Source: Candidatus Krumholzibacteriota bacterium
GTDB taxonomy: Bacteria; Krumholzibacteriota; Krumholzibacteriia; JAJRXK01
DNA: 64,000 nucleotides
Reading direction: 5' to 3'
Assembly (NCBI GenBank): GCA_963727455.1
Contig: CAVSGG010000006.1
Location: 64,001-128,000, forward strand
Shown: piece after piece, positions 4,262 to 56,568 of the stretch
How the letters are laid out: every line of letters starts with the position of its first letter
Numbering within the stretch: the stretch's first letter is position 1
Notes under the pieces: generated by a model
Told to the model about the DNA's origin: nothing
The model's database searches: none
What the model saw: the letters and a program-made list of their open reading frames with translations, nothing else
Program-made: the position numbers and the translations under genes

Positions 4262-6022
4262 ATGACTGCATTGCGCACGTTCTTCGTGGATTGGACTGGA
4301 CACCCCCGTGCTCTGGCCGCACTTCTTGTGGCACTGGCGAGCGCAATTTCTCTCCCGAGTTTCGCCACCACTCTGCTCGTTCCCGAGAACTACAGCCTCG
4401 AGGGGGCCCTGAGCGCCGCGGCATCCGGCGACAGCATCAGCGTGGCGGCCTACACTCTCGACGGCACGCTCGTGGATCTCACCCAGAGCATCACGCTGAT
4501 TTCGCGGGAGATCGGAGCGAATCGGCTCATTGGCGTGAGCGTGGACAGTTTGCAGCAGGTCCGAGTCGAGGGGTTTCTCGTCGGCTCTACGGATTATATC
4601 GGTGATACCTACGAGGGAGGCGTGACCATTCGTGACTCGAAGGTCGTATTTACCGACTGTGAGTTCTCGTATCTCCGGACGGTATCGGGTCCCCCGATCG
4701 CCTATGCCGCGGACTGCGAGCTACTCTTCGAAGGATGCACCTTCCACGACAATTACTGGGAACGTATCACGGAGGGAGCTGCCTCGGAAGGCAACTGTAT
4801 GGCCACCTACAACTACTCCGAGACTGACGAAGGAACACTTACGATCCGAGATTGCGATTTCCAGAACCAATCCAGTCCTGTCGCCTCTTGGATCCCCGTA
4901 ACGATCGAAAACACGCGATTCTCAGGCTGCGGCCCATTCTTGGTCTCCGCTCACGAATCCCTGGAAATGGTTGGCTGCCTCGTTGCGAATTTCCAACAGT
5001 ACATGAGCGGAGATTGGCTCGTCGTGGAGTGCCTTGGCGTAACAGATTGCATTCAAGCTTTCGGCAATGTCACGATCCAGGGGAATACTTTCGTCGACAC
5101 CGTTATTCCTCCTGGCCCTGTGATCGGTCCCTGCGGATACGGCACGGTATACCCTCCAGAGGAGATCCCCGCCTCCATCAAAGTCTCCGACAGCGGTAGC
5201 GGAGTCATCGAAAACAACCTCTTCATCGGCCTGCCGGCAGCTGCAGTTGAAGCGCCTGCCAGCGTATCCGTAGGCTGCAACGACTTCTGGGAAATCGATG
5301 GTCCAAACACGCGCGGCGGTATCGGGGACGTCACCAAGAGCGACGACAACATCAACGCGGCGCCGCTTTTCTGCGCCCGTTATGCCGGGGACTATACCTT
5401 GAGCACGCATTCTCCGGCGTCGGCCGAACACAGCTCCTGTGGACGCATGGGCGCCTTCGACACGGCCTGTGAGATCACTCCGGTACTTGTGCAGGACTTC
5501 ACCGGGACGAGGGTGGAGCATGGCGTCCAGCTTCAATGGTCGCTGAGCGAGGCCAGGAGGTTCTCCTTCGCAGATTGGAGCAGGGGAGCTTCCGCCGAAC
5601 TCTATCGTGGCCAAGGCGCGAGTGGGGTGTATGTCGACACCGCCGCTCCTGCCGGCGTACTGCGCTACGGTCTGGGCATCGTGCAGAATGGACAGGAGAT
5701 CTTCCCCCTGGAGACGCTGAGCGTGGTGGCATCCGAAGTCCCCGCACGCACCACTCTATTGGGTATGTTTCCAAATCCTTTCAATCCCAGTACGACCATC
5801 AAGTATGAACTGGATCGGACCCAAGCGGTGACACTGCGCATCTTCGATCGGGCTGGCCGCCTAGTGACGACCCTGGTGGACGAGCAGCAAGTCGCCGGCA
5901 AGCACGAACTCGAGTGGCGTGGTACGGATCGTGAAGGTCGTCAGCTCGCATCGGGCGTCTATCTCTGCCAACTTCGAGCCGGAAGCCATTCGCAGAGCTT
6001 GCGCATGGTACTTCTTCGATGA
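4262..6022 (+). CDS. Secreted right-handed beta-helix protein with a C-terminal FlgD-Ig / T9SS-like sorting domain
   Basis: Signal peptide; pectin-lyase-like repeats (FTDCEF, FEGCTFHDN, IRDCDF, IENNLF); NINAAPLFC...DYTL...SP; C-terminal FPNPFNPSTTIKY...WRGTD..G..LASGVY...RMVLLR. Confidence 0.8.
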   Translation: MTALRTFFVDWTGHPRALAALLVALASAISLPSFATTLLVPENYSLEGALSAAASGDSISVAAYTLDGTLVDLTQSITLISREIGANRLIGVSVDSLQQVRVEGFLVGSTDYIGDTYEGGVTIRDSKVVFTDCEFSYLRTVSGPPIAYAADCELLFEGCTFHDNYWERITEGAASEGNCMATYNYSETDEGTLTIRDCDFQNQSSPVASWIPVTIENTRFSGCGPFLVSAHESLEMVGCLVANFQQYMSGDWLVVECLGVTDCIQAFGNVTIQGNTFVDTVIPPGPVIGPCGYGTVYPPEEIPASIKVSDSGSGVIENNLFIGLPAAAVEAPASVSVGCNDFWEIDGPNTRGGIGDVTKSDDNINAAPLFCARYAGDYTLSTHSPASAEHSSCGRMGAFDTACEITPVLVQDFTGTRVEHGVQLQWSLSEARRFSFADWSRGASAELYRGQGASGVYVDTAAPAGVLRYGLGIVQNGQEIFPLETLSVVASEVPARTTLLGMFPNPFNPSTTIKYELDRTQAVTLRIFDRAGRLVTTLVDEQQVAGKHELEWRGTDREGRQLASGVYLCQLRAGSHSQSLRMVLLR

Positions 6023-7356
6023 GGATGGCAACGATGAGCACATGGAAGACCAAGTTTCTTTTGATCCTCGTTTGTTGGACCACGGCGGCAACGGCACTAG
6101 CCAAGGACAAGGTTCTTTTCGACTGGAACAAGGGGGAGGTGGGGAATTTCGGTGGAGTTGGCTTTGCTCTGGGCGACATCAACGGAGACGGTGCGGACGA
6201 CATCGCCCTCAGACTGGATGATGAGATCGACGTCTTTTTCGGGGGGGAGAACGCCGATGAGGTGGCCGATCTGGTGATCGCACCCCCGAGTGGCCCGCAT
6301 CCCGGGTTCCCTCTGCAAGGGCCGATCGATCTCAATGGTGACGGGCACGATGATCTGATCGTGGCTGCCAACGGTGCCACGCGTGAGGGTCCCATCTACT
6401 GCTACTGGGGCGGAGCGGCCGTGGACGATGTCCCGGATTACGTCGTTCACGGCTCCTGGACCGCGGCCAGTGCCTGCCGAGCAGGAGAGTTCATGCCGAA
6501 CGACACGTTCGACGACTTGGCCGTCGCCAAGACGGGGACCAACTACAACTACGTCGATGTGTACGAGGGGGGAGAGGCCCCCGCCGAGGAGCGATCCTGG
6601 AGCCGCATCGAATACTTGATATTCACGCTATGGGAGTACCACTTCTGCTATGCGGGTGACTTCAACAATGACGGCTACGGAGATATTGTAACGGGCGCGC
6701 CTTTAGCCACGAGTGTCTGTCTGCGTTATGGAACCGTCCAAGCTTCGTGCTCAGAGGGCGGGCAGGTGTATCTGTATTGGGGCGGACCGGAGCGTTTTCG
6801 CGGCGCCCTGATAGCCCATGGCGACGAGGACAATATCCGTCTGGGCTTCCAGACGTCGGCGGATTGCGATTTGAACGCGGACGGTTACTCCGACGTTATT
6901 TCGACAGCGGATAGTGCTGACGAGACCTGGGCGATCTTCGGCCGTCCCGGCTATCCTTCCAGAATCTTGCAGCCGAGCCGGCTGCTCGCCGGGGGGAAGA
7001 GCGCAACTGCATTGGGAGACATCAATGGTGATGGCGCGGACGACGTGGCAACCAGGGACTCCTCGGGGCAGCTTCGGATCTTCCTAGGAAGCGCGACGTT
7101 CGATACGACGGAGGATGCATTTCTCACCCTCCCTGCGGAGGATACGCGGGCGTTCAAGTGGCTGTTCCGCGTCAACGATTTCGACGGCGACGGTTATGAC
7201 GACATCGGCGTCACTCTTAGTGAATCGGTCTCCGGCCAGGAACCCATCACGAGCTACCGCATCTACAGTGGCTTCAACGCTCTCGCCGTCCCCGTACAGG
7301 ATCAAACGGTTGGCAGACTCAAGTCGCTGTTCCAGGGAATCAAAAGGAATAGGTGA
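6019..7356 (+). CDS. Secreted FG-GAP (integrin-alpha-like) repeat protein
   Basis: Repeated GDINGDGADD, DLNGDGHDD, GDFNNDGYGD, DLNADGYSD and DFDGDGYDD motifs; signal peptide; start overlaps the upstream stop (ATGA). Confidence 0.85.
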   Translation: MRMATMSTWKTKFLLILVCWTTAATALAKDKVLFDWNKGEVGNFGGVGFALGDINGDGADDIALRLDDEIDVFFGGENADEVADLVIAPPSGPHPGFPLQGPIDLNGDGHDDLIVAANGATREGPIYCYWGGAAVDDVPDYVVHGSWTAASACRAGEFMPNDTFDDLAVAKTGTNYNYVDVYEGGEAPAEERSWSRIEYLIFTLWEYHFCYAGDFNNDGYGDIVTGAPLATSVCLRYGTVQASCSEGGQVYLYWGGPERFRGALIAHGDEDNIRLGFQTSADCDLNADGYSDVISTADSADETWAIFGRPGYPSRILQPSRLLAGGKSATALGDINGDGADDVATRDSSGQLRIFLGSATFDTTEDAFLTLPAEDTRAFKWLFRVNDFDGDGYDDIGVTLSESVSGQEPITSYRIYSGFNALAVPVQDQTVGRLKSLFQGIKRNR

Positions 7357-8062
7357 AGGTCGCGCCACCCGGGGCGACACGGAAGTGGGAAAGTAAGGTG
7401 GTGCTGGTGCGTTCGTGCACCACGGTGCGCCCCACGGCCATCCCTAGAGTCGCGCCGAACACCACGTCTGAGAGGTAGTGGTAGCGGTCCTCCATTCTCC
7501 CCATGGCGGTGGCGCCGACGAGGGCGTAAGCACAGGCCCCCACGAGCGGTCCGAAGTGATGGGCCAGAACCGGCGCGGCGGACATCGCTACGCCCACGTG
7601 TCCGGAGGGGAAAGAGTAGCTGCCGCCGTTGGGCCGCGTGCGTCCTGCCGCCGTCTTGATCGCCACGATCAAAGCTCCGCTCAACAGGAAGGAATGGGCC
7701 AGGTCAACGCCGGCTGCGAGGAGTCGAGGGGAATGGGCGAGCGCGCCCGTGGTCACCAGGCCGAGCGCGCCCCCCGCAATGGTCAGACCGTTACCGTAGA
7801 CGTTCCCCAAATCCGATACGCCATCCAGGTTCCGGGTGTCCAAAAAGCGCTCTTCGTCATGAGCGCTCTCCACCTGATGGCCCGCGATCGTGAGCGCTCC
7901 CCCCAGGGCGAAGAGTCGCAGATTTTCCCGACTGACCAGTCCGGCAGCATCGCTCTGGAGTATGGTCTTCGCGCCGTTGAGGGGGGCGGCCGAGGCCGCG
8001 GCGCTGCAGAGCAATGCGCCAATGCTCAGGCCAAGCCAGAGAAGGAGTCGGCCTCTCTTCAA
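7340..8062 (-). CDS. PAP2 family phosphatase
   Basis: KTAAGRTRP, SFPSGH and GRMEDRYHYLSDV correspond to the PAP2 C1-C3 motifs; signal peptide. Confidence 0.85.
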   Translation of the reverse strand: MKRGRLLLWLGLSIGALLCSAAASAAPLNGAKTILQSDAAGLVSRENLRLFALGGALTIAGHQVESAHDEERFLDTRNLDGVSDLGNVYGNGLTIAGGALGLVTTGALAHSPRLLAAGVDLAHSFLLSGALIVAIKTAAGRTRPNGGSYSFPSGHVGVAMSAAPVLAHHFGPLVGACAYALVGATAMGRMEDRYHYLSDVVFGATLGMAVGRTVVHERTSTTLLSHFRVAPGGATFTYSF

Positions 8063-8152
8063 GTTCGGATGCCTCTGGGGTGGGGGAACGCCCGGGGCGT
8101 GGGGTACCCCGGGTATGTTCTATTTACACCCGCGTGAGGCATTGGTTCCGGC

Positions 8153-10015
8153 TCAGGCTTCCGTGTCGGGCGCCACCTGGAGATGTCGCTCGAGAAAACT
8201 CTCCAGTGCACGATAGAAATCGAAGACGTTTTCCTCGTTGTGAAAACCGTGGCCCTCATCGTCCTTGACGAGGTACTCCACTTCGACGCCCCGCTCGCGA
8301 AGGGCAGAGACCATCTGGTCCGATTCCTCCTTGCGTACCCGGGGATCGTTGGCTCCCTGGGCCACGAGCAGGGGCACGCGGATACGATCGGCATGAAAGA
8401 AGGGAGAGGTCTCCTTCAGTCGCTCGGCATCGTTTTCGGGATCTCCCACCATCTCATGGATCATTCCCAGCAGGGGCTTCCAGTAGTCGGGGATGGCGGC
8501 AATCCAGGTGAAGATGTTCGAGACGCCGCAGTAGCTCACTCCGCACGCGTAGAGTTCTGGGGTTTGGGTCAAGCCGGAAAGAGCCGCATAGCCTCCGTAG
8601 CTTCCACCGTAAATTGCGATCTGTCCCGGATCGGCGATGCCGCTCTCCACCGCCCAGGCCACCCCGTCGGTTACGTCGTTTTGCATCGTGAGCCCCCACT
8701 GTCCGTAGCCGGCCTCCTTGAACTTGCGACCGTATCCGGTCGACCCGCGGAAGTTCATGCGGAGCACGGCATAGCCTCGGTTGGCGAGGAACTGTACCTC
8801 GGGATCGAAGCCCCAGGTGTCGCGGTGCCAGGGCCCGCCATGGGGGATGACGACCATCGGCACCCTCGCATCATTCCCGGCCACCGGTTGGGTGAGATAA
8901 CCCTCGATAACCAGTCCGTCGCGCGAGCGGTAGGTGATGGGTTCGAGCGGAGCCATTTCCTTTTCATCGAGCCAGGGAGAGACATCGAAGAGCTTGCGCA
9001 GGGACAGGGTTCCATCTCGCCGCGACTCCAGTAGATGATAGTCACCGAGGGAGCGGTCGCTGCGGGAGTGCACCACGTAACGCGATTCGTCCTTGGAGTG
9101 CGAGACGATACGGTTGAAGCGCTCCGGGAGATGATCGTCGAGGAAGCGCTGGAGTTTCTTGTCGTACTCCTCGAAGTACTCGTAGGCGGGCTTCGCGGTG
9201 TGGTACAGCACGCCGGTGATGGTGCGACGATATTTGGAGTACAGTAGAGCGGAGACGTCGACCTTCGGATGCTCGAAGATCAGGCCCCCCTCTCGGCCGC
9301 TCTGCAGGTCGTACTCGAAGATCGCGTAGTGATCACGGCCGACGTTCGATGCGACATAGAGGCCCTGATCGTCGAAAGTGAAGCAGAGGGGACTCGCTGC
9401 CTCCTTGAAATCGTAGGTCGCGATCGTCTTCCAGGCCGCGACTTCGGTTTCGCGGTACAGAATGCTCGTGTTCACACCGTCGGTCGTGGTGGCGAGGCGC
9501 AATCGGCCGGCGTGGTCGGTGAGCCAACCCTGCACGTTGCCCGGATTCTCGGCGACGATCGTCGTATCGCCCGTCGTGACGTTCAGCCGATAGACATCGA
9601 ACACCTCCGGGTTTCTGCGATTCATCTCGAAGAGGATTTCGTCGTCGATTTCCTCGAGATCGTCCACGATCGAGCACTTGACGCCTTCGTATGGCGTGAG
9701 GTCGAGGGGATGGGAGCCGTCGCGCCCAACGCCGTAGAGCCGGTAGTTCTCGTCACCGCCGCGGTCCTGTACATAGATCAGACGCTCGTCGCTTGCCCAG
9801 AGATAGCCGGCAATGTCGCGCTCGGTGGCATCGGTCACTCGAAGCTCCTTGCCCGTTTTGAGCTCGCGCACCCAGAGGTTCAGACGCCGCTCGTGGGGAG
9901 CAAGAAACGCGAGATAGTGCCCGGAAGGGGAGAGCTCGAGACCGGCACGTTCGGGTTTGCGGAAAAAATCTTCTAGTGGGATGCGCCGGACCGATGAACT
10001 CACGCGATTCTCCAA
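8153..10015 (-). CDS. S9 family (prolyl oligopeptidase / acylaminoacyl) peptidase
   Basis: [22 protein letters not shown] nucleophile motif, [14 protein letters not shown]. Confidence 0.93.
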
Positions 10016-12273: not shown

Positions 12274-12341
12274 GCGGACGCTGCGACCGCTGGTATACAT
12301 CTTGCCCTTTGCGCAGTGGGGAATGGCGCAAAGGATTGATC

Positions 12342-12995
12342 ATGAAGACTCGCTTGGGAAGCATGAGCAGCGCTTTGGCTCTGTCGGTCCTTCTGGTGGT
12401 TGCGATGGTCCCGCAGTCCACACGGGCCGGCCTCGACATTTCTTTCGGTGCCGCGGTCCACACCGGGGACGATACGGACGTCTATCTCGCGGTTTCCACC
12501 CGCTACTTCGATCGCGACCGCGCGGATGTCGATCGCTGGAATCGGGAATGCCGAAATCCCGACGATTTGGCGGTGGCGCTTTTCATCGCCAGCCATTGTG
12601 GCAAGGGGCCCGATGCCATCTTCGCGATGCACAAGGGCGGTCTGAGCTGGTGGGAGGTGAGCATGCGCCTGGGAGTACAGCCCGACGTATGGTTCGTTCC
12701 AGTGCAGCGCGATCCGGGACCGCCCTACGGTAAGGCCTACGGTTACCACAAAAAGCACGGTCACAATGCGGCCAAGATGCATCTGAGTGATGCAGACCTG
12801 CGCAATCTGGTCGCGGTGCGCATGCTCCACGATTACTACGGTGTGAGCGCCGAAGTCGCGATGGACTGGCGTTCATCCGGACGCAGCTTGCGCGAGATCG
12901 CAGCAAACGAGTACCGCGCGCGTCATGGCAAGAGCCAGCATGCCAACGGCAAATCGCCGAGTCACGGACACGGCAAAGCCAAGCACAGGCGGTAG
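12342..12995 (+). CDS. Secreted hypothetical protein with His/Lys-rich segments
   Basis: Signal peptide; PPYGKAYGYHKKH and a C-terminal HGKSQH...HGHGKAKHRR segment. Confidence 0.65.
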   Translation: MKTRLGSMSSALALSVLLVVAMVPQSTRAGLDISFGAAVHTGDDTDVYLAVSTRYFDRDRADVDRWNRECRNPDDLAVALFIASHCGKGPDAIFAMHKGGLSWWEVSMRLGVQPDVWFVPVQRDPGPPYGKAYGYHKKHGHNAAKMHLSDADLRNLVAVRMLHDYYGVSAEVAMDWRSSGRSLREIAANEYRARHGKSQHANGKSPSHGHGKAKHRR

Positions 12996-13060
12996 TCCTC
13001 ATCGAAGCCGCTCTGACGGAGAAGCCAGCGGGATCATCGGTCTCGGTGGCCTTGTCGGAT

Positions 13061-13088
13061 TTGACATCGGCGTTCAATCCGATATGAT
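13061..13088 (+). promoter_or_regulatory. Putative sigma-70 promoter
   Basis: TTGACA-N16-TATGAT upstream of 13193, overlapped by a TCGGATT/AATCCGA inverted repeat. Confidence 0.55.
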
Positions 13089-13192
13089 CGCGACCTTCCC
13101 CCGCGTGCGGCCTCCGCTCGTCTTCAGCCGACGATCAGTTCTTCGAGTATTCAGAACTCATTGTCGCATGAATAGCCCTCAAGGAGAAAACC

Positions 13193-13672
13193 GTGAAGAG
13201 GACACTTCTAGCTGCATTCATCCTAACCCTCTTGGCCGTGGGTTGCGGCGACAACTCGACTTCGCCCACGGCGAACACCACACCGACGAGCTACAAGATC
13301 AAGGCCACCACGAATTGGTTCGTCACCTCTCCCGACGCCGATCTTTCCAAGTTCTCGAGCGCGCACATCGTGGTGACGTACACGAGTAATGTTCCGGATG
13401 ACTGCGTCTTCAATTCTTCGCCACAGTTCCAGCTCTGGTCGGATCCCGACGTTTACGATTTCCCCGCCGAGGGTGCCGTCACCATCAACTCAGAGCCAGC
13501 GGGCACGGTAAGCCCGGGCGACACCTTCTCCTACGATCTAACCCTCGACCTCACGAACTTGCCGCCCGGCCAGGACCACATCGGCATGCGGCCCAAAGAG
13601 AACAATCTCTACGGGAATCTCGGTCCACCCCGATCCACGGTGTTCTCTTCCGATGTGACCTTCACGCCCTGA
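13193..13672 (+). CDS. Hypothetical lipoprotein
   Basis: AAGGAG RBS, GTG start, lipobox LAVGC followed by a Ser/Thr linker. Confidence 0.7.
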   Translation: MKRTLLAAFILTLLAVGCGDNSTSPTANTTPTSYKIKATTNWFVTSPDADLSKFSSAHIVVTYTSNVPDDCVFNSSPQFQLWSDPDVYDFPAEGAVTINSEPAGTVSPGDTFSYDLTLDLTNLPPGQDHIGMRPKENNLYGNLGPPRSTVFSSDVTFTP

Positions 13673-14547: not shown

Positions 14548-16983
14548 CTAGCCCTTGGCTTCCTTGTCGAGCGCGATCCCCAGGCGTTGCATCTTCTCGT
14601 AGAGCGTGTTGCGTCCGATTCCCAGATATCGAGCGGCTTCAGAACGCGAGTTCTTGCACTTGCGCAAGGCGTAAAGAATGATCCGGCGCTCCTCGACTTC
14701 CAAATGCTGTTGGAGGGAGAGAACGGGAGGCGGTTTCTTGCCGCGCGACTCTCGTAGAGAGTGGGGGAGGTGCTTCACGCGCACGCAGCCTCGCTCCAGA
14801 GCGCGAGTCGCCCCTGCACGGACGGCAGACTGCAGCTCCCGCACGTTGCCGGGCCACGGGTAGCGCTCGAAAAGTCTCCGCGCCTGCTTATCCATCCAAA
14901 ATTCGATGCCATACTCCTGGGATTGCTCCTCGAGGAAGAGATCGGTGAGTGGTGCGATATCCTCGGTACGCTCGCGCAGCGGCGGAACCCTTACTTCAAA
15001 AGCATTGATGCGGTACCAGAGATCTTCTCTGAAGGTTCTCTCCTCAACTTGGCGCTTGAGGTCACAATTCGTGGCGGCCAAAACACGGATATCGGCCGTA
15101 TACTCCACAACATCCCCGACCCGACGATAAGTGCCTTCCTGCAGTAATCGAAGCAACTTCGCCTGCATCGGCATCGGAAGCTCTCCGATCTCATCCAAGA
15201 AGAGTGTTCCTCTGGTGGCGGCAGCGACGACACCAGCCGCATCGCGGTCAGCACCCGTGAATGCGCCCTTCTTGTGTCCAAAGAGCTCGCGTTCGAAAAG
15301 AGACTCCGGGAGAGCAGCACAATTTACTGCCACGAAGGGTCCATCCGAGAAGGTGCTATGTTCGTGGATGTAGCGAGCAACAACCTCCTTCCCAACTCCG
15401 GTTGCTCCCATGATCACAGCAGGGGAAGCTGAGCGAGCGATGAGTTCACAGTCAGCAAGGACCGCCTTCATGCTAGGGGATACTGCGATGAGCGTGCCTT
15501 CCTTACGCACTGTTTGCTTCTTCTCCTCCGTGCATTGGGAGGCTTGTGCGCGGAGGCGGGCAAGATCCCGGGCCTCACGCGCGTCGTGTGCCAAAGTCGT
15601 AAGCTGGAGACGGGAAAAAATGGCGAGTGCTTCTTCGGCCGCATCAGCTGCCTGATCCGGCTCCAGGATCGCCGCGAGTTGGACGAGTGTCTTACCGAGT
15701 TCCAGGGGATTGTTGCGACGTCGCAACTCCGAAGCGGCTTCGTCGAGAAGTGGAATTGCCTCATCGGGGCGCGCAAGCTGCGCCAGGGCGGTAGCTTTAA
15801 CGCGAAGAATCTGGCCATACTCGCGAGGGTTTCCGCATGTGTGGATTACTTCGAGAGCATCGTTGGCAAGGTCCAAGGCGATTCGGGGGTTGTGCATGGC
15901 AAGATGAACTTCAGCCTCTTGCCAATAGACTTCGGCGAGTTCATAAGTTGTTGTTCCGGACGCCGCGAGGCACTTCTTGGCCTCCTCGAAAGATGCTAGG
16001 GCCGCCATGTAATCGAGTCGCTGGGCTTGTGCAATACCTTGGTACTCGTGCCACATGGCGGCGGCCGAGGCGTCCATATGCGAAAGATTATCTCGAACCT
16101 CATCAAGTCTACTGGAGGCAGACGTAACATTTCCAAGCAGCAGCTCAAGCCTGGTAAGTGCCACGAGTGTTTTCAACTTGAAGGGAGTCACTCTGCTCTC
16201 AAATTCGGTATGGAGCTCCAGCGCATGAATCAAGAGGGTTTGAGCCCTTGCGAACTTGGCCTGGTGGTAGCAGAAGATGCCAATCTGACGAAGCGCGGCC
16301 GTTGCAGTTCTGTAATTTCCAAGACGTGCCGCAAGTCTCAAAGAGGCGGTAGATAGTTGTTCAGCGTATCCCGCATTCCCAAGCCCCCATTGAATCTCGG
16401 CACGAGCCTGGAGCGCGTGAGCGAGTAGCAGCTGTTCTGACTGGAGGCGGAAGAGACCACAGGCAAGATCGATTTGTTCCTCGGCTTGCATTAAGTCACC
16501 AGAGCGGGAAAACGACCTGTAGCCCTCAAGATACATGATTTCTGCCAAAACAAGCTGGGAGTCCTCTGGATTACAGATTCGTCGAGCAGAACTTACCGCA
16601 GCACGTGACTTACGGTCGTTGCCACTCATTAGTTCGGACCACGCTACCTTGATTCGGATGCGCGCTTGAGCTTCTACACTCAAGCTCCTAGCTGGTCCCG
16701 AGAGGAACTCGGCTAGCTTTTCCCGATTCCCGGTGACATGAAGCGAAAGGGCGTAGTGTACCCCTATCTCGTTGCGGAGATCAGGCTCAAGAGAATCCAA
16801 GTCAAGAAGTGCCTTCTCCGCATAAACTATTGCAGTATCGAAACGCCCGGCCGCCGTGAGTGGTACTACGAGGGAGGCACTCTCTCGCGCCGAGATTGGG
16901 TGTCTGTGGTCTTCGAGTCCAGGAGTAAGCGCCAGTGAGGTCGCTTTCAGGCGTTGAATAGTGCGCTTGAGGTCGGCGTTCAT
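14548..16983 (-). CDS. Sigma-54-dependent enhancer-binding protein with a long N-terminal TPR-like domain
   Basis: Walker A GATGVGKE, VNCAAL, ELFGHKKGAFTGA, FLDEIGE, WPGNVREL and a Fis-type HTH (RSEAARYLGIGRNTLY). About 480 aa of Ala/Leu-rich helical repeats precede the ATPase; no receiver domain. Confidence 0.92.
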   Translation of the reverse strand: MNADLKRTIQRLKATSLALTPGLEDHRHPISARESASLVVPLTAAGRFDTAIVYAEKALLDLDSLEPDLRNEIGVHYALSLHVTGNREKLAEFLSGPARSLSVEAQARIRIKVAWSELMSGNDRKSRAAVSSARRICNPEDSQLVLAEIMYLEGYRSFSRSGDLMQAEEQIDLACGLFRLQSEQLLLAHALQARAEIQWGLGNAGYAEQLSTASLRLAARLGNYRTATAALRQIGIFCYHQAKFARAQTLLIHALELHTEFESRVTPFKLKTLVALTRLELLLGNVTSASSRLDEVRDNLSHMDASAAAMWHEYQGIAQAQRLDYMAALASFEEAKKCLAASGTTTYELAEVYWQEAEVHLAMHNPRIALDLANDALEVIHTCGNPREYGQILRVKATALAQLARPDEAIPLLDEAASELRRRNNPLELGKTLVQLAAILEPDQAADAAEEALAIFSRLQLTTLAHDAREARDLARLRAQASQCTEEKKQTVRKEGTLIAVSPSMKAVLADCELIARSASPAVIMGATGVGKEVVARYIHEHSTFSDGPFVAVNCAALPESLFERELFGHKKGAFTGADRDAAGVVAAATRGTLFLDEIGELPMPMQAKLLRLLQEGTYRRVGDVVEYTADIRVLAATNCDLKRQVEERTFREDLWYRINAFEVRVPPLRERTEDIAPLTDLFLEEQSQEYGIEFWMDKQARRLFERYPWPGNVRELQSAVRAGATRALERGCVRVKHLPHSLRESRGKKPPPVLSLQQHLEVEERRIILYALRKCKNSRSEAARYLGIGRNTLYEKMQRLGIALDKEAKG

Positions 16984-17379
16984 CTAGCGCTCCATTCCGT
17001 GCATGTGAACGAATCCGGAGAACTCGCGTAGGAGATGATGCAACCACCGCGAACCAAAGCGTGTAAATTTTGCGAAAGCAAAATCACCAGAGTCGGCGGA
17101 GATGCTGCGATCACGAGTGTTAGTACTTGGCAGGATCGTTGGAGCCAGTGTGTCTGTTCGTCCGATGAGTAGCTCACCACCACCCGGATCCCCCCCACTC
17201 GAGCTGCCCGAACTTGCCTCGATGTCTCCTTGGAAGGTGCCGAGCCTGGATATGACCTTGGCGTGGCTCGCGGACGGAACCGTACAGAGAGCAAAACTGC
17301 AAAGGAGAAGAAAACTCAGGATTGTGCAAAACCAGTAGCTGCGAAAAGTCGTCTTCACCGTTGAACGGGAAGAATTCAT
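16984..17379 (-). CDS. Small secreted protein / putative peptide precursor (131 aa)
   Basis: AGGAGG RBS; signal peptide ending in SHA; low-complexity SSGSSSGGDPGGGE core. Its TAG directly abuts the ATG of the downstream activator. Confidence 0.7.
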   Translation of the reverse strand: MNSSRSTVKTTFRSYWFCTILSFLLLCSFALCTVPSASHAKVISRLGTFQGDIEASSGSSSGGDPGGGELLIGRTDTLAPTILPSTNTRDRSISADSGDFAFAKFTRFGSRWLHHLLREFSGFVHMHGMER

Positions 17380-17523
17380 CGGTGCCTCCTGGACCTCAAA
17401 TCGATACAACCCTGAGCACGGCAACCGACGTCCGTCGCGTGCTAACTGGTCGTAGTGGCCAGAGCATGGCCTTTTTGGGAGGGGTCTCGGCTGGGAGCGA
17501 GCCATGACCGAGAGTGTCAACCA

Positions 17524-17555
17524 CGATTAGACACTATGCGGCAAGTCGATGTCAA
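17524..17555 (-). promoter_or_regulatory. Putative promoter TTGACA-N18-TCTAATCG
   Basis: Lies upstream of the peptide-activator operon; the same architecture occurs at 27669-27700. Confidence 0.45.
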
Positions 17556-17659
17556 GGGGACCGGGAAATCCAGACAAATACCTCAACTCGCACACAGAAA
17601 AAACAGAGTGAAAGATTCAATTCTCAAGTTGAAGCAGTGAGAACTCAACTCCTTGAGTA

Positions 17660-18793
17660 TTACTCCAACCCCACCACATGAAAAGTCGACAGCTGACTCC
17701 CCGGAAGACTCACATAGGACTGAGCGGCGTACCAGAACTTGGCTCCATCGAAAGCGAGGCCCTCGGGAAACGGCCCGTTGACTTCGTCAGGCAGGTGATA
17801 CACGGCCACCGTCTTCCCCGTGTGGTCGATCTGGTAGAGGTTACTCAGGAACCAACCCACGCTCCAAAAATAGCCGTTGGCGTATTCGAGGTGGCTGAGA
17901 TCGCAAACCGAAATGGGAACGGTTTCCACCACGCTGCCCGAAGCATCCAGACGATACAGCGCCTCGCTGCCCGGCCCGAGGTTCCACACCGAACTGCCGT
18001 CGTAGGTCAGACCCGAGGAGCGCATGGGAATCCCAACTCTTTGCGTGATCGTTCCATCAGGGGTGAAGCGGATGAGGTCGGCCTCGTTGCGCGTTCCCGT
18101 TCCGTCGGTAATGGAGGTAGGCAGCGTGCCCCACAACTCGCTGCTACTTGCGGCGAGATCATGGCTCGTCCAGAAGGCATCGTTTTCCAGCAGCACCAAG
18201 ACGGTGTCATCGAACGCGTCCGCGGTTAGGGGCATCGTGAAATAGCCATATCCCAAAGTGCTGATCCACAGATGATCACCCATGACCGCCAGCCCCTTGA
18301 TGTCGTTGGGAACTTCTCGATTGGAATCGAGGGCGAGTTCACCGAGCTGTTGCTTCTCCGCCTGCATCGACGCTTCGAGTCCAGCGGTTGGCAGACTGAA
18401 GGTGCCGTTGAATCTCGTCGAGGCACCGGACACCTCTCCCGCCAATGCAAATGTGAACAGGTAGGGATGGGAATCGTAATCGAGCGCCAGGTGCAAGCTG
18501 TCACCATCGCTCGTGCCACTGAGATCGAAGAAGTGCCAGCTATCATTCCCTCCTCGATCGCGCAGTACGATTTGACCCTTCACCACGCTTCCGGTGCGCG
18601 TGAGGTCCAGCAGCAGCCCTCCGTTCTGCGTGTGATCGAGGCTTTCGTAAGTGCCCTGCCAGAACTCGGCCGTGGTTGGGTAGCTGAAGTTCTCGGGTCC
18701 GGTGCCGTCGTCGTCGCACCCGAACTGTAGCAGGCTGAAAATGAGAATCAGTGGTAGGTAGGTGAGACTAAAATTACGGCGGGCGAAAAGCAT
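17660..18793 (-). CDS. Lipoprotein with a C-terminal beta-propeller (glutaminyl-cyclase/YncE-like)
   Basis: Lipobox QFGC; repeated blade motifs GLAVMGDHLW, GLTYDGSSVW, LEYANGYFW, EGLAFDGAKFW. Confidence 0.7.
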   Translation of the reverse strand: MLFARRNFSLTYLPLILIFSLLQFGCDDDGTGPENFSYPTTAEFWQGTYESLDHTQNGGLLLDLTRTGSVVKGQIVLRDRGGNDSWHFFDLSGTSDGDSLHLALDYDSHPYLFTFALAGEVSGASTRFNGTFSLPTAGLEASMQAEKQQLGELALDSNREVPNDIKGLAVMGDHLWISTLGYGYFTMPLTADAFDDTVLVLLENDAFWTSHDLAASSSELWGTLPTSITDGTGTRNEADLIRFTPDGTITQRVGIPMRSSGLTYDGSSVWNLGPGSEALYRLDASGSVVETVPISVCDLSHLEYANGYFWSVGWFLSNLYQIDHTGKTVAVYHLPDEVNGPFPEGLAFDGAKFWYAAQSYVSLPGSQLSTFHVVGLE

Positions 18794-18988
18794 GGCGCGT
18801 CCTTCTTGTTGAGGAAGCGTCGACCAGGGACTCGATTCTAGCGAAAATCCCGCGCGGCAGGCAAGCCGACAGTTCAAAGCCAGCTTATGGCCCAGGAATC
18901 GGCCAATCCTTGCTCGAAGACCAGCAGAACCCCTATCATTGCGTACACACGCGGCAGCCGTCCTTCATCCTAGATTTTGGGAGAGCCC

Positions 18989-20152
18989 ATGCGACGCCCC
19001 CCCAAGCTGCTTTCGATCCTGACGGCCGCCCTCTTCGGCTCGCTCTTCGCTGCGAGTTGTTCCAACGACTCCACGACGACTCCTCCCACACCCGAGTTCG
19101 TCAGCCCCTGGGTCGAGATCGCCCTTCCCGACACACTTCCCAAGAGCGTATTGATGGGCATTGCCTTTTCGGGAACACGCGGACTCGCGTTGGGTGCGCA
19201 GGGAAGCTCTCAGGGATACGTGCTCGAATTCAACGGGACGAGTTGGCAGCCGCAGCAACTTCCCACCGACGTGAACGATTTTCCTCTGGCCGTGGCCATG
19301 GACTCCGCGGGCAAAGGTGTGGTCGTCGGCGCCCGCTCCGACGGAGGAGGTTCTCCGGTTGTCTTCGCGGAGCGCCCCGATTGGACTCGCGTGGATCTGC
19401 CGATGGTCTTCGGTGGACTGCAGTGCGTCGCGGTCGACGCCTCCGGCACTTTTCTGGCCGCGGGACCCGGAGGCTCCACCGTGCTCGCCCTCAGTGGCAC
19501 CGCGACCGGAAGCTGGACGCAACTCTCCATTCCCTTGCCAGGGGATCCCCAGGAGAAGGCCCTGGTGGATCTCGCCTCGCGCGACGGCACCTGGGCGGGC
19601 TGTGGATTCGACGACGGGGGACAGGGCGACGAGAATTCCCCCTTCTCCGTCGTGCTCATGAATGACGGAACGGGCTGGGATCTGCTCCCTGGCCCAGGTT
19701 GTGGAGCCTGCGGCAGCCGCGAATACCGCGCGGTGGCTCTCAACGCGCAGGGCGCTCTTCTGCTGGGAGGCGCCATCACCGATTTCTCCGCCGGGGCCGA
19801 CGATGAATACACCGCGTTCCTCGCGCTCTACGATCCCGGCAGCGAAAGCTGGACGGAGATCGTCCTTCCCGCCCCGGGCGTGCTCGATCGAGTCAACGAC
19901 ATCCTGGTGACGTCCACCGGCGATGTCTATCTGGCCTGTGGGCTGGCCCACCAGTCCTTGATCCATCACGAGCCGACGGGCAAGACCACCGTCGAATGGA
20001 GCAGCAGTGAGGAGTCGATCACGAGCCTGGCCGAGGACGCCTTGGGAAACGTCTACGCGGTCGGCGTGCACAATGAGAGAGTCGTGGGTGACCCGCCCGG
20101 CACCTATCGCATCGGCCCCCCGTTCATGCTGCAACGGCCGGCCGAACTCTGA
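18989..20152 (+). CDS. Beta-propeller-like lipoprotein, paralog 1
   Basis: Lipobox AASC; W-spaced repeats; CGFDDG, GCGACGSR and YLACG motifs shared with the next gene. Confidence 0.75.
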   Translation: MRRPPKLLSILTAALFGSLFAASCSNDSTTTPPTPEFVSPWVEIALPDTLPKSVLMGIAFSGTRGLALGAQGSSQGYVLEFNGTSWQPQQLPTDVNDFPLAVAMDSAGKGVVVGARSDGGGSPVVFAERPDWTRVDLPMVFGGLQCVAVDASGTFLAAGPGGSTVLALSGTATGSWTQLSIPLPGDPQEKALVDLASRDGTWAGCGFDDGGQGDENSPFSVVLMNDGTGWDLLPGPGCGACGSREYRAVALNAQGALLLGGAITDFSAGADDEYTAFLALYDPGSESWTEIVLPAPGVLDRVNDILVTSTGDVYLACGLAHQSLIHHEPTGKTTVEWSSSEESITSLAEDALGNVYAVGVHNERVVGDPPGTYRIGPPFMLQRPAEL

Positions 20153-20166
20153 TCCGGAGGCAGTTC

Positions 20167-21318
20167 ATGCGCACGGCCAGCAAGTACTTGATCCTTCTCA
20201 TCACGATCCTGCTGGCCTCGGTCCTTGGGCTGGCCTGTTCCGATGACGGGACCGGTCCGGGGTCCGAGAAAAGTCCCTGGAAAGCGTTCGCTCTTCCCGA
20301 CAGCCTCCCTCCGAGCAATCTCACGAGTATCGCAGTCACAGATGCTCGGGTTCTCGTGCTAGGTGCTACCGGAACGAGCGGCACGAAGCCGGACTACCTG
20401 CTCGAGTCCGACATTTCCCACTGGACCGCGCACACGCTCCCCGTCGACTCGAACGACTTCCTCTTCGGCGTGGCCATGGATGCCGCGGGCAAGGGAGTCA
20501 TCGTCGGCGCCAACGCTTCCGGCGGCGGTTCGCCCGTTGTCATGGCGGAACGTCCTGGCTGGACGCGGGTGACTCTCCCCGTGACGAGCCACGACCTACG
20601 CGCGGTGGCGGTCGACCCAAGCTCGGGCACCTTTCGAGCCACCGGGTCGACTGGTTCGAACCTGCTCGTGCTCTCCGGAACAGCAGATGGAAGCTGGACG
20701 ACAGTCTTGACCCCGTCGCTCGGCGATCCCCAAGACAAGAGCCTGGTCGATGTGGCATATGGTTCGGGAACCTGGGTGGCCTGCGGATTCGACGACGGTG
20801 CCGACGGTACGGAAGATTCTCCCTTCTCATTGGTGCTCATGGACGACGGCAGCGGTTGGACGCTGCTCAAAGGGATCGGATGCGGCGCCTGTGGATCTCG
20901 TAAGTATTACGCAGTCGCCGTCAACCAGGCCGGCGCCATTCTGCTGGGTGGGGCGATCACCGACAATTCCGCCGGGGCCGCCGACGAGTTGGTGGCCTTT
21001 CTCTCGCAGTACGACCCCGCGCACGATAAGTGGAGCGAGATCTGGCTGCCCGAGGCGGGCGCCCTCGACCAGGTCAATGACATCCTGGTGGCCGAGAGCG
21101 GCGACATCTATCTGGCCTGCGGGGAGTCCTCGGCGGCGCTGGTCCGGATCGCCGCAGCGGGCGGAGCCACCATCGAGTGGCACAGCAGCGAGGTGATCCT
21201 GCAGGCCCTCGCCGAAAGTTGGAGAGGGGACATCTTCGCGGTGGGTTCCAAGGGACCCGCCAACGAGTTTCCGCGAGACCCGTACATGCTCTGGCGCCCG
21301 CTGCGGCTCGTGTACTGA
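20167..21318 (+). CDS. Beta-propeller-like lipoprotein, paralog 2
   Basis: GGAGG RBS; lipobox GLAC; collinear similarity to 18989-20152. Confidence 0.75.
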   Translation: MRTASKYLILLITILLASVLGLACSDDGTGPGSEKSPWKAFALPDSLPPSNLTSIAVTDARVLVLGATGTSGTKPDYLLESDISHWTAHTLPVDSNDFLFGVAMDAAGKGVIVGANASGGGSPVVMAERPGWTRVTLPVTSHDLRAVAVDPSSGTFRATGSTGSNLLVLSGTADGSWTTVLTPSLGDPQDKSLVDVAYGSGTWVACGFDDGADGTEDSPFSLVLMDDGSGWTLLKGIGCGACGSRKYYAVAVNQAGAILLGGAITDNSAGAADELVAFLSQYDPAHDKWSEIWLPEAGALDQVNDILVAESGDIYLACGESSAALVRIAAAGGATIEWHSSEVILQALAESWRGDIFAVGSKGPANEFPRDPYMLWRPLRLVY

Positions 21319-21616: not shown

Positions 21617-21700
21617 GTCAGTTCCAGAGAGTTTGATGCGCGAGGCTGGAAAGGAGCACCCAGCCGAGAACCGGGGCGAAAACCTGACTGAAAGCCTAAC

Positions 21701-23326
21701 TCAGTGCTGGCTGATGAGTTGGGGGACGACGCCGCCCATGACCTCGTCGAAGCGCGGGCCGCGCAACAGTTCGATTTGCTTTTCGAGCAGCTGCTCCATG
21801 CTCGCGAAATCGAGTCCAATCTTCCTCCACACGAAATCGTCGTGATCTTCGACCGAGAGACCGTGGCCCGGTTGGATCTCGCAGCCGTGGTAAAGATGGG
21901 CGAAGTAGGCGCGTTCGTTTTCCTGACCCCCGCCGTACACGAGCACGTTCAAGAGCCCGTTGGTGGGAGACCAGTCGCGATCCTGGATGGGGCGCACCGC
22001 GAGGCGCGGATCCTCGAAGTACTTCTCCAGGGGACGCACCGCAGGGAGAAGCACCCGGAACAGGGCACCTTCTCCCTTTTTATTCCACATGCAGGTTGAG
22101 GCTGCTCCGTCCTCCATCTCGGGCTCGAGCACGGTGAGGTCGGGCCGGTTGAGCGCGTTGTCCGTGCCTGCGCAGAGAATTTCGGGCTTTCCATCCTCGG
22201 AGAGGTCGGCGAGGTAAGGTTGGTACATGTGCCCCGGATGTGTGTAGTGGGACAGTGGTGCTCCACTCTCACGATCGACGATCAAAAGGAAGCATGGACT
22301 GTAAAACTGTTGGTAGCAGATCGCGAGTCGCGAACCCAAAGTGAGTTTCCCCGTGCGCCAGGCCACCGAACTCACTCCCCACCCCTGATCGTAGACCGTG
22401 GTATCGAGCGTACTGTGCGTGAAGATCTCCGCGCGCGGGGGGCGCCACTTTAGCTTCCACACGAAGGAATCGGCCTCAGCGTCCCAGAGCCAGACTCTTC
22501 CTCCTTGGCTGCCACCGCGCTGGCTGGTCAAGAGCAGCCGAGGATCATCATTTGAAGGTCCCGGGAGCAACATCAGACAACCCAGCGGCGCGCCCAAGCT
22601 CGGCAGGCGAAGCGCCGGCACGAGTTGTTTCAGTGGAGGGTTCCCTTCCTCGGATTTTTGGTCCAGGCGCAAGGGGACGCCGATATAGCGCGCGTCGATG
22701 CGGCGTAGCTGAGTATTCAGGTCCATGGATGCGGAAGCTAACTGCGAAGCCTGCCGGAGTTGCTTCAGTTGAGGTAAACCCCAAATCGCGAGGGCGAGGA
22801 GCATCACGATGCCACCGGCGAAGGCTGCGCGCTTCAGCTGTTGTTTGCGCCGGTGGAAGGGAAGATCGAGCTGGGGAAGCTCGGGGAGAGTTTCGCTCTG
22901 CGCCCAGCGGAGGATGAGTCGATAGGCCTCGTGCTGGCGGTTCTTCAACGTGCGCTCGGAAAGACGAACCAGGCCCGTTTCTTTGCGCTGCGCGGAGATG
23001 ACGTCCCAGGTATCCCCGTCGAGCACGTGCCGTTTCAAGAGGGTGATGGGCGAGACATCGTCCATCATGGCGGGATGTCGTGACTCGAGTTCCTCGACTG
23101 CGATCTCGAGGGCGGTGCGGCAGATCTGCCGCACGAATTCGGGCTTGGCGGGATCGAGCCGATCCAGCCCGAGATTGCGAAAGCGCGGATAGACGCCCCA
23201 GTCGAACTCCAGCACGATCTCATAACTGCGCCGATTGAAGCGGCGCACGAGTTCGCACATCTGGCTCATTGCGGCCTGCGGCTGCAATGGCCGGACGTCG
23301 TTCCCGTCTCCCGAGGAACGGGGCAT
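21701..23326 (-). CDS. Bitopic membrane protein: cytoplasmic HTH-like domain, one TM helix, extracytoplasmic beta-propeller with an FG-GAP-like motif
   Basis: TWDVISAQ...LSERTLKNRQHEAY resembles a sigma-4-like HTH; TM AAFAGGIVMLLALAIWGL; ADLSEDGKPEILCAG. Confidence 0.65.
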   Translation of the reverse strand: MPRSSGDGNDVRPLQPQAAMSQMCELVRRFNRRSYEIVLEFDWGVYPRFRNLGLDRLDPAKPEFVRQICRTALEIAVEELESRHPAMMDDVSPITLLKRHVLDGDTWDVISAQRKETGLVRLSERTLKNRQHEAYRLILRWAQSETLPELPQLDLPFHRRKQQLKRAAFAGGIVMLLALAIWGLPQLKQLRQASQLASASMDLNTQLRRIDARYIGVPLRLDQKSEEGNPPLKQLVPALRLPSLGAPLGCLMLLPGPSNDDPRLLLTSQRGGSQGGRVWLWDAEADSFVWKLKWRPPRAEIFTHSTLDTTVYDQGWGVSSVAWRTGKLTLGSRLAICYQQFYSPCFLLIVDRESGAPLSHYTHPGHMYQPYLADLSEDGKPEILCAGTDNALNRPDLTVLEPEMEDGAASTCMWNKKGEGALFRVLLPAVRPLEKYFEDPRLAVRPIQDRDWSPTNGLLNVLVYGGGQENERAYFAHLYHGCEIQPGHGLSVEDHDDFVWRKIGLDFASMEQLLEKQIELLRGPRFDEVMGGVVPQLISQH

Positions 23327-27700: not shown

Positions 27701-27887
27701 GGGCTCTACTCCGTTTAAATACACTCCGCCAGTGAATTTAAACCGGATCCGAATCTTTTCCTTTTCGTTCTCTGCGCTTCAGGGCAATCTTGGGAACGCG
27801 GTGTGAGGGATGCGGAGGCCCGTCTCCTCGCGCGGCGCATACAGATCGTTTTGGCAGGAAAACCCCACGCGCAAGGGGCATACGCTC

Positions 27888-54521: not shown

Positions 54522-54651
54522 GATCTCCCATTCACCATCTTCGAAGTAAAATTGGTTGCCACCCAGGCCTTGGCGAGAAGGGCCCAAGCGCTTTCCTTAT
54601 CATCTGCGGCCCCGTCCGGGTCGCAGTCTCTTTATTCTAAAGGAGAGAGAA

Positions 54652-55644: not shown

Positions 55645-55653
55645 GAGAGAGCC

Positions 55654-56559: not shown

Positions 56560-56568
56560 GAGCTGGCG

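Follow-up and report, generated by a model that had tools for sequence, protein, structure and literature searches.

A predicted exported small protein paired with a TPR-sensor sigma-54 activator in Candidatus Krumholzibacteriota: a possible ligand/receptor cassette with RRNPP-like logic

Peptide-receptor signalling of the RRNPP kind is found in Bacillota and their phages, where it comprises the pairs Rap-Phr, NprR-NprX, PlcR-PapR and AimR-AimP. The known inputs of sigma-54 activators are phosphorylation, small-molecule domains and cytoplasmic partner proteins, and in PspF-PspA, HrpS-HrpV and NifA-NifL a bacterial enhancer-binding protein (bEBP) is controlled in trans by a partner protein. To our knowledge, none of PspF, HrpS and NifA has a tetratricopeptide repeat (TPR) sensor. 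Searches of abstracts in the open, non-subscription literature returned neither a TPR-sensor bEBP nor an RRNPP-type system in a diderm. Here, we analyse two adjacent genes in a 64-kb stretch of DNA (hereafter the window) from a metagenome-assembled genome of Candidatus Krumholzibacteriota, an uncultured soil bacterium; protein and locus searches agree on this host. The first gene encodes a small protein with a signal peptide, and the second encodes a sigma-54 activator with a TPR domain as its sensor. We read the pair as a cognate exported-ligand/TPR-receptor cassette that would be RRNPP-like in its logic, and assign this reading a probability of about 0.4.

The locus resembles RRNPP systems in that a small open reading frame (ORF) with a Sec signal lies beside the gene of a cytoplasmic TPR receptor, and in that the pair is inherited and diversified together. 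It differs from them in its output, which is a sigma-54 AAA+ motor with a Fis helix-turn-helix (HTH) and not a plain HTH or a phosphatase, and in its gene order, as the peptide gene comes first and its stop codon abuts the following start. Furthermore, the conserved parts of the small protein are the region after the signal and a C-terminal helix instead of a short C-terminal peptide, and the host belongs to an apparently diderm phylum. With PspF-PspA, HrpS-HrpV and NifA-NifL, the locus has in common an intact AAA+/GAFTGA/HTH_8 architecture, no phosphorylation input and a candidate partner encoded next door, whereas the partners in those systems reside in the cytoplasm or peripherally on the membrane and have no signal peptide that could be cleaved. 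STAND proteins such as MalT likewise combine an NTPase, a TPR sensor and an HTH in one polypeptide, and four of the five TPR domains of the family treated here gave weak TPR_MalT matches (best E 4.1e-5, below the family cut-off). In our case, however, the NTPase is an AAA+ of the sigma-54 clade (PF00158) and not a STAND NOD, and the TPR part is N-terminal and not C-terminal.

Both genes are on the minus strand of the window. The small ORF (16984..17379) consists of 131 codons and a TAG, with its ATG at 17379..17377 and its stop at 16986..16984, and encodes a precursor from which a 91-aa protein is predicted to be exported. The Shine-Dalgarno sequence AGGAGG (17385..17390, -) is located 5 nt before the ATG and is identical in L001 and L003, two of the three homologous loci (L001, L002 and L003) used for comparison. 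Because both of these loci have an in-frame TAG just 5' of the ATG, the 131-aa start is right and a 178-aa start at a TTG is wrong. The junction reads GCGC-TAG-ATG-AAC, i.e., the stop of the small ORF abuts the activator ATG at 16983. The activator gene (16983..14548, -) encodes 811 aa, and its ribosome-binding site (RBS) GGAG lies 6 nt 5' of its ATG, inside the final codons of the small ORF. L002 carries GAGGGGAGGGGG at the position of this GGAG, and the overlap with the RBS codons may explain a C-terminal G-x-x-R/H of the small protein. A preliminary description of this DNA had reported a 131-aa ORF with an RBS and with a TAG abutting the ATG of an 811-aa protein, and the coordinates, the AGGAGG and the junction all agree with it. 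We predict that the two genes form an operon which is restricted to a small clade of Candidatus Krumholzibacteriota and in which gene 2 is translationally coupled to gene 1.

The pairing is conserved beyond the window. Homologous loci were sought with an alignment of the TPR domain alone (A1), since ordinary sigma-54 activators would otherwise swamp the scan; with one genome per species, 28 pattern matches were obtained, three of which encode a relative. The TPR identity to the window is 76% for L001, 68% for L003 and 46% for L002. A small ORF lies directly upstream of the activator in all three loci, as the preliminary description had led one to expect of a signalling pair. An intact 131-aa signal-peptide ORF ends 0 nt before the activator ATG in L001 and 1 nt before it in L002, while in L003 two frameshifts split the small ORF into three pieces that can still be read. 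Frameshifts in that locus (5596..8439 and 8500..9157) affect the activator, which is in at least four pieces, and a neighbouring F420-type oxidoreductase gene as well as the small ORF, and leave the lipoprotein genes intact. Since the activator and the oxidoreductase gene are also broken, indel errors of the assembly and a decaying locus look alike here. L001 and L003 are syntenic with the window and L002 is not: when 15 window genes were compared with L002 by tblastn, the activator alone was matched. Hence, the pair stays together where all else has changed, and L002 has preserved the open frame of the small gene in DNA that can no longer be aligned.

A word-indexed search with the TPR domain gave five proteins among 8000 candidates scored, two of which correspond to the L001 gene, annotated in truncated form, and to the L002 gene. 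The profile of the small protein, run against 1.84 billion representatives, gave eight matches at E ≤ 0.001, of which six genuinely belong to the family. The other two, P0011 (1139 aa, nine matched stretches) and P0012 (1920 aa, 14 stretches), were taken as probable low-complexity Ser/Gly matches. A search of a 5.8-billion-cluster set gave seven matches. Overall, eight distinct small proteins were obtained, which are 22-56% identical to the window protein. P0008 and P0004 are the two members of the L002 pair. The longest contig is 12130 for the small protein P0010 as well as for the activators P0003 and P0005, which suggests a further small-protein/activator pair. No match to the TPR domain was found by tblastn among 72,556 plasmids. 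As judged by these searches, both families are tiny and appear to be co-extensive in distribution.

The two genes have also diverged together. Between the window and L001, its closest relative, the neighbouring genes have protein identities of 91-99% and a synonymous divergence (dS) of 0.10-0.24. The activator is 83% identical (TPR domain 76%) with a dS of 1.0, and the small protein is 56% identical with a dS of 0.9; over the first 22 codons of the small ORF, the proportion of synonymous differences (pS) is 0.07 and thus flank-like. Where dS is unsaturated, dN/dS of the small ORF is below 1 (0.58, 0.37 and 0.14). The high synonymous divergence points to old alleles or to import from a relative rather than to a recent burst of positive selection. 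In 100-nt windows, identity to L001 drops from 89-92% to 76% at ~17312, has its minimum of 54% in the 3' portion of the small ORF, ranges from 66 to 86% across the activator and is back at 97% at ~14617. The mean nucleotide identity is 0.771 within 17312..14618 (27 windows) and 0.899 outside (104 windows; Mann-Whitney p = 4e-10, for windows that are not independent), and of all windows in the 15-kb comparison, the three with the lowest identity fall within the pair.

Mosaic sequences place breakpoints in both genes. The small protein P0002 and that of L001 are identical for 65 aa, through the GDP triplet discussed below, and then alike at 7 of 66 positions. A frameshift as the cause of the unrelated P0002 tail was rejected, as no frame of the L001, window or L003 DNA matches it. 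In the activators P0003 and P0005, identity is 17-48% across the first ~350 residues and complete across the 425 C-terminal ones, with a breakpoint at ~aa 385; they represent tandem paralogues that underwent gene conversion, or else two alleles of a single population. The C-terminal half of the small protein and the first ~385 activator codons are contiguous on the DNA, and the simplest reading of the mosaics is a swappable stretch of ~1.3 kb. The single divergent island relative to L001 and the mosaic breakpoints are consistent with the covariation of small ORF and TPR domain anticipated in the preliminary description, as an agreement of pattern and not as the outcome of a formal test.

The small protein has a tripartite layout behind its signal peptide. 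The signal peptide (aa 1-40; 17260..17379, -) was called by hand rules and not by SignalP. It has an n-region with a charge of +3, a 19-aa hydrophobic core (Kyte-Doolittle mean 2.18) and the sequence P-S-A-S-H-A|K, which is a site of the signal peptidase I type after A40. The homologues have Ala at -1 in all eight cases, a small residue (S, A or V) at -3 and Kyte-Doolittle means of 1.8-2.7. Inside the hydrophobic core, Cys27 (codon 17299..17301) is invariant in 8/8 proteins, in the context LLLC or LFVC. A lipobox at the invariant LLLC was considered and rejected, as the context is not canonical for the motif: position -1 is occupied by Leu or Val, and the Cys is followed by some 12 more hydrophobic residues and an AxA site.

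The signal peptide is followed by a conserved Ser/Gly-rich core (aa 43-70; 17170..17253, -), which includes GGDPGGGE at aa 63-70, a hypervariable middle (aa 71-105; 17065..17169, -) and a Trp-rich amphipathic helix (aa 106-131; 16987..17064, -), whose final codons carry the activator RBS. The middle is predicted to be disordered (predicted local distance difference test, pLDDT, <50) and contains the least conserved 100-nt windows, at 54% and 63% identity to L001 and 49% to L003. AlphaFold2 predicts a helix at 4-33, disorder at 36-102 and a helix at 96-128, with a mean pLDDT of 52.5, i.e., at low confidence. The highest hydrophobic moment over 18 aa is 0.76 (aa 104-121). In the homologues, the C-terminal helix reaches the stop codon and W-x-x-x-L-x-x-L is kept, e.g., RWLHHLLREF and WWRQYLEILR. 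The lengths are 123-132 aa, with 6/8 proteins at 130-131. M1, C27, A40, G47, S57, S61, G67 and G68 are invariant in all eight. The small protein matches no Pfam, NCBIfam or PADLOC family and has no usable match in the ESM Atlas.

The hand rules, the AlphaFold2 model and the hydrophobic moment agree with the signal peptide (SHA|), the Ser/Gly stretch with GGDPGGGE and the amphipathic C-terminus that had been noted before. The conserved GDP core that had been envisaged holds in part. The Ser/Gly core is conserved, with G47, S57, S61, G67 and G68 invariant, but D and P of the triplet vary, which reads GDP, GNP, GYP, GDL or SDL across the eight proteins. Therefore, what is conserved is not a GDP core but a Ser/Gly-rich stretch, approximately S-x-[AS]-S-x-G-x-x-x-G-G-x-[LF].

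The activator begins with a TPR sensor domain of 24 helices (aa 1-485; 15529..16983, -), which matches Pfam TPR_12, as do all five TPR domains of the family. AlphaFold2, run on a five-sequence alignment, models it with a mean pLDDT of 87.6. It is followed by the sigma-54 interaction AAA+ domain (aa 499-664; 14992..15489, -; Sigma54_activat PF00158, E 7e-63). Within this domain, motif reading locates a Walker A GATGVGKE (aa 526-533; 15408..15385, -), the GAFTGA loop motif (aa 573-578; 15267..15250, -) and a Walker B LFLDE (aa 594-598; 15204..15190, -). The AAA+ lid (aa 670-750; 14734..14976, -; AAA_lid_14 PF25601, E 1.7e-18) and a Fis-type HTH_8 (aa 761-800; 14584..14703, -; PF02954, E 1.4e-12) complete the protein. 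Pfam finds no receiver, GAF or PAS domain in it. Pfam, the motifs and AlphaFold2 thus agree with the earlier account of TPR-like helices, an intact GAFTGA AAA+ and a Fis HTH without these input domains, and by its domain content the activator is predicted to be a bona fide bEBP. Among the 25 of 32 NCBIfam matches listed, all are below the curated cut-offs and cover the AAA+/HTH part only, so that no named equivalog (NorR, RtcR, NtrC, PspF or others) applies. A defence-system reading was rejected: PADLOC matches the activator only via its AAA+/HTH core, to RtcR-type models, and does not match the small protein. For the gene surroundings, 64 ORFs of the window were scanned (those of ≥200 aa plus neighbours; nine at E ≤ 0.01 and 55 at E ≤ 1e-5). 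No HisKA, HATPase_c or Response_reg match was obtained among them, in line with the earlier remark that no kinase gene is nearby.

When the A1 profile was run against all PDB sequences, the top matches were Rap3T (E 3.4e-4; query 251-385 on Rap 38-175) and RapJ (E 1.5e-3), with PA4667 and designed TPRs ranking below them. This similarity of the TPR domain to Rap is a lead and not a proof of homology. In the ESM Atlas, the TPR domain falls into generic TPR clusters only, at 0.89-0.90. Complex prediction for the TPR domain (A1) with the mature small protein (A4, aa 41-131) gave 0.00 in two runs without controls and is not used as an argument in either direction.

Taken as a ligand/receptor cassette, the locus would work as follows. 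The product of gene 1 would be a Sec-exported, largely disordered 91-aa protein, and the product of gene 2 a cytoplasmic sigma-54 enhancer-binding protein whose sole input domain would be a TPR superhelix of 11-12 repeats. The TPR domain would read the small protein or a fragment of it, whereupon the AAA+ ring would be switched on or off. In the route that we infer, the precursor would be exported and cut by signal peptidase I after A40, the mature protein would be broken down, within the periplasm or outside the cell, into a short peptide, and this peptide would re-enter via a peptide permease and bind in the TPR groove, with regulation of either sign at as yet hypothetical target promoters. 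It is rather probable that the small protein, or a fragment, is the cognate input of the activator by some route, because the two genes stay adjacent even amid unrelated neighbours and share a narrow distribution, the stop of the first abuts the start of the second, no further sensor domain is seen in the activator, and the two diverge jointly. That the route is export followed by re-entry is a tentative preference which we place somewhat below even odds; it is favoured because of the strictly conserved cleavage site, a diversification that resembles the alleles of peptide pherotypes, and the Rap lead. The RRNPP-like signalling module of the preliminary description accordingly stands in its anatomy and conserved pairing, and quorum sensing, to which it had extended the idea, is at most a role that we infer.

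Several observations weigh against this reading. The Rap similarity is weak and confined to ~115-135 residues, and Foldseek against the PDB gave generic TPR superhelices (LGN/Pins, TSK, NOT10, OGT and APC; TM 0.2-0.48), with no RRNPP receptor among the matches listed. The conserved core of ~30 aa and the C-terminal helix suggest a mature protein that may have a function of its own. The divergence of the pair is also open to another account. With L003, a more distant relative, as the reference, the divergence of the pair does not exceed that of its flanks (0.725 vs 0.744, p = 0.17), with the single lowest window again in the small ORF. Other patches of the 15 kb are mosaic as well, e.g., 21700..22800 at ~80% identity to L001. 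A 541-aa protein without a family match (21701..23326, -) forms this second divergent patch (~70-87% nucleotide identity vs >90% nearby), and thus mosaic divergence is not unique to the small-ORF/activator pair. Furthermore, one recombination tract can give joint divergence of adjacent genes with no functional coupling.

The surroundings and the cell envelope add to these counterarguments. The 64 scanned ORFs of the window include no peptide permease gene and no rpoN. The sigma-54 consensus TGGCAC-N5-TTGCW, searched over the 64-kb window with ≤2 mismatches, gave 25 matches against 24.6 expected; none is upstream of the operon, and those close to it fall within genes. Searching for GG-N10-GC alone yielded no information, with 1022 matches against 1004 expected. 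An OmpA-family protein is encoded at 27810..29357, and the organism appears from such gene content to be diderm, so that a returning peptide must cross or bypass an outer membrane. The size of the proteins is a further point. In PMC10075063, the operational signature of RRNPP systems is given as a propeptide of 10-100 aa by default, a secretion signal, a receptor of 250-500 aa, TPRs and direct neighbourhood of the two genes. Three of these five features are present here, namely a Sec/signal peptidase I signal (by hand rules), TPRs and neighbouring genes. The propeptide, with 131 aa (homologues 123-132 aa), is longer than that default range, as had been pointed out at the outset, and the receptor, with 811 aa, exceeds the stated range, although its TPR part alone (485 aa) falls within it. 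Because the two lengths are out of range and the output module is of a different kind, we do not file the locus as an RRNPP member.

The anatomy would also fit a switch that operates within a single cell. The TPR domain would hold the unexported precursor in the cytoplasm, with the activator off or on, and Sec export would drain the partner and flip the switch; export capacity or the state of the envelope would then be reported within one cell, and neither re-import nor cell-cell signalling would be involved. Type III secretion TPR chaperones provide a precedent, as in IpgC-MxiE and SicA-InvF the chaperone turns co-activator once its substrate is secreted, and the logic of FlgM/sigma-28 is akin. 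The TPR domain could likewise read the cytoplasmic level of an export-bound protein. The analogy is one of logic, and homology is not claimed; in the present locus, TPR and activator form one polypeptide, export would be by Sec and not by an injectisome, and the output is sigma-54-dependent. Such a switch would need no import machinery in a diderm, the abutting stop and start and the RBS within the small ORF favour the ~1:1 synthesis of a stoichiometric partner, the conserved amphipathic C-terminal helix is a plausible ligand for a TPR groove, and LGN/Pins, the best fold matches, bind extended partner peptides. However, Sec precursors usually stay in the cytoplasm only briefly, and the diversification of the middle and C-terminal parts together with the N-terminal TPR region fits specificity between cells, and less obviously an internal sensor. 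We consider this switch unlikely. Equally, the two genes may be operon mates whose products never meet, the small protein having its own function in the envelope and the TPR domain sensing another protein or a metabolite. Beyond adjacency there is no detectable interaction signal between the families, the mature protein keeps its core and helix as a functional protein would, and neighbouring genes share recombination tracts anyway. Against such independence, the pairing persists down to 46% TPR identity in an otherwise unrelated neighbourhood, both families are equally narrow in distribution, the stop/start junction is kept at 0-1 nt, and the activator lacks both a second input domain and a partner kinase in its vicinity. 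We consider mere co-transcription improbable.

The layout of signal peptide, poorly conserved spacer, C-terminus conserved up to the stop, near-constant length and abutting downstream start is that of a secretion-monitoring leader, in which the C-terminal helix would stall the ribosome until the translocon pulls on the signal peptide and would thereby set translation of the activator. SecM-secA, VemP-secDF2 and MifM-yidC2 are leaders of this type, and they too have a signal-peptide ORF of ~100-170 aa just upstream, a translational link and a conserved C-terminal segment. Here, however, the downstream gene encodes a transcription factor and not a Sec or YidC component. No known arrest motif of the RAGP/RAPP type was recognised when the eight C-termini were inspected. 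A ribosome stalled at the final codons would cover and not expose the activator RBS, the conserved Ser/Gly core after the signal peptide would be left without explanation, and RNA folds of the junction are no more stable than those of shuffled sequences (z 0.02, 0.07 and -0.12), though the minimum-energy folds pair the activator RBS. Hence, stalling is very unlikely. The idea that the small ORF is spurious, a chance frame in a conserved leader, would accord with its low-confidence fold and its lack of a Pfam, NCBIfam or PADLOC match. In view of the strong RBS, eight homologues that are alike in length and layout at 22-56% identity, dN/dS values below 1 and a frame that is open in L002, where the DNA is unalignable, this idea is practically excluded. 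An exported ligand read by the TPR domain thus remains our preferred interpretation. The anatomy and the evolutionary pattern, as read from sequence, are solid and unusual, and the mechanism proposed for them is unproven.

The operon is preceded by a sigma-70-like promoter candidate (17526..17555, -), with TTGACA at 17555..17550, an 18-nt spacer and TCTAAT at 17531..17526. A consensus promoter scan does not contain TTGACA-N18-TCTAAT because of the C at position 2 of the second hexamer. The CCTTGACA of the candidate is conserved in the window, L001, L003 and L002. The conserved 5' leader of ~145 nt (17380..17525, -) is ~90% identical between the window and L001, and its first ~85 alignment columns are still recognisable in L002. 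The blocks CCTTGACA, GACAC and GGCTCGC...CCGA..CCC are common even to L002, and promoter and leader together (window 17380..17557, -; L001 5428..5604; L003 5427..5604; L002 5442..5603) are better conserved than the coding sequence behind them. In the window, a GTGTC-N11-GACAC inverted repeat overlaps the -10 region. A GGCC-stem hairpin with a T-run (17457..17471, +) is terminator-like on the plus strand, where no gene ends; on the minus strand, the same hairpin is part of the conserved leader. The sequence TGGCTCGCTCCCAGC in the leader was rejected as a sigma-54 promoter, as its GC element is lost in L003 and L002. Rfam gave no family above threshold for 16900..17750, and a permuted tmRNA match (17.8 bits vs a gathering score of 47) was taken as chance. 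The leader folds no better than shuffled sequence (z-score -0.83), and a consensus fold of the four sequences has no supporting covariation (covariation term +2.56).

Three lipoprotein-like genes are located beyond the leader (17660..18793, -; 18977..20152, +; 20167..21318, +). They encode a lipobox Cys after a signal peptide and have no confident Pfam or NCBIfam family, and the plus-strand genes are paralogues of each other, with cross-hits at 51-55% identity. Synteny with L001 and L003 extends over all three, and L002 lacks them. The activator might regulate these genes locally; a sigma-54 promoter was not seen there. On the other side of the operon, at ~12300..13590, a 228-aa ORF (12309..12995) and most of a 159-aa lipoprotein ORF (13193..13672) are without an L001 counterpart, which corresponds to a ~1.3-kb indel between these close relatives. 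Peptidases are encoded at 8153..10015 (-), 37195..39057 (-) and 44630..45640 (+), comprising the S9 prolyl-oligopeptidase family (two genes) and an M3 oligopeptidase F. These genes are not linked to the operon in L002, and we claim no role for them. A row of MoxR AAA+ (AAA_3), DUF58/VWA and BatA/VWA genes at 54556..58692 (+) is a Bat operon of the aerotolerance type.

If a TPR sensor is indeed tied to a dedicated exported protein, a new class of input would be added to those of sigma-54 activators. The diversification of the cassette predicts that specificity is swapped along with the ~1.3-kb stretch. Carried to its end, this would mean swappable pherotype cassettes, made up of the C-terminal half of the precursor and the first ~385 TPR residues, that gate a sigma-54 motor, the first RRNPP-type system outside monoderms, and strains of one Krumholzibacteriota population with private channels; we regard this extended picture as doubtful. 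Were the export-coupled switch true instead, the locus would be a one-operon sensor of Sec export, which is undescribed for sigma-54 systems. Should the peptide route prove true, peptide-receptor signalling of the RRNPP kind would extend to a diderm, uncultured phylum.

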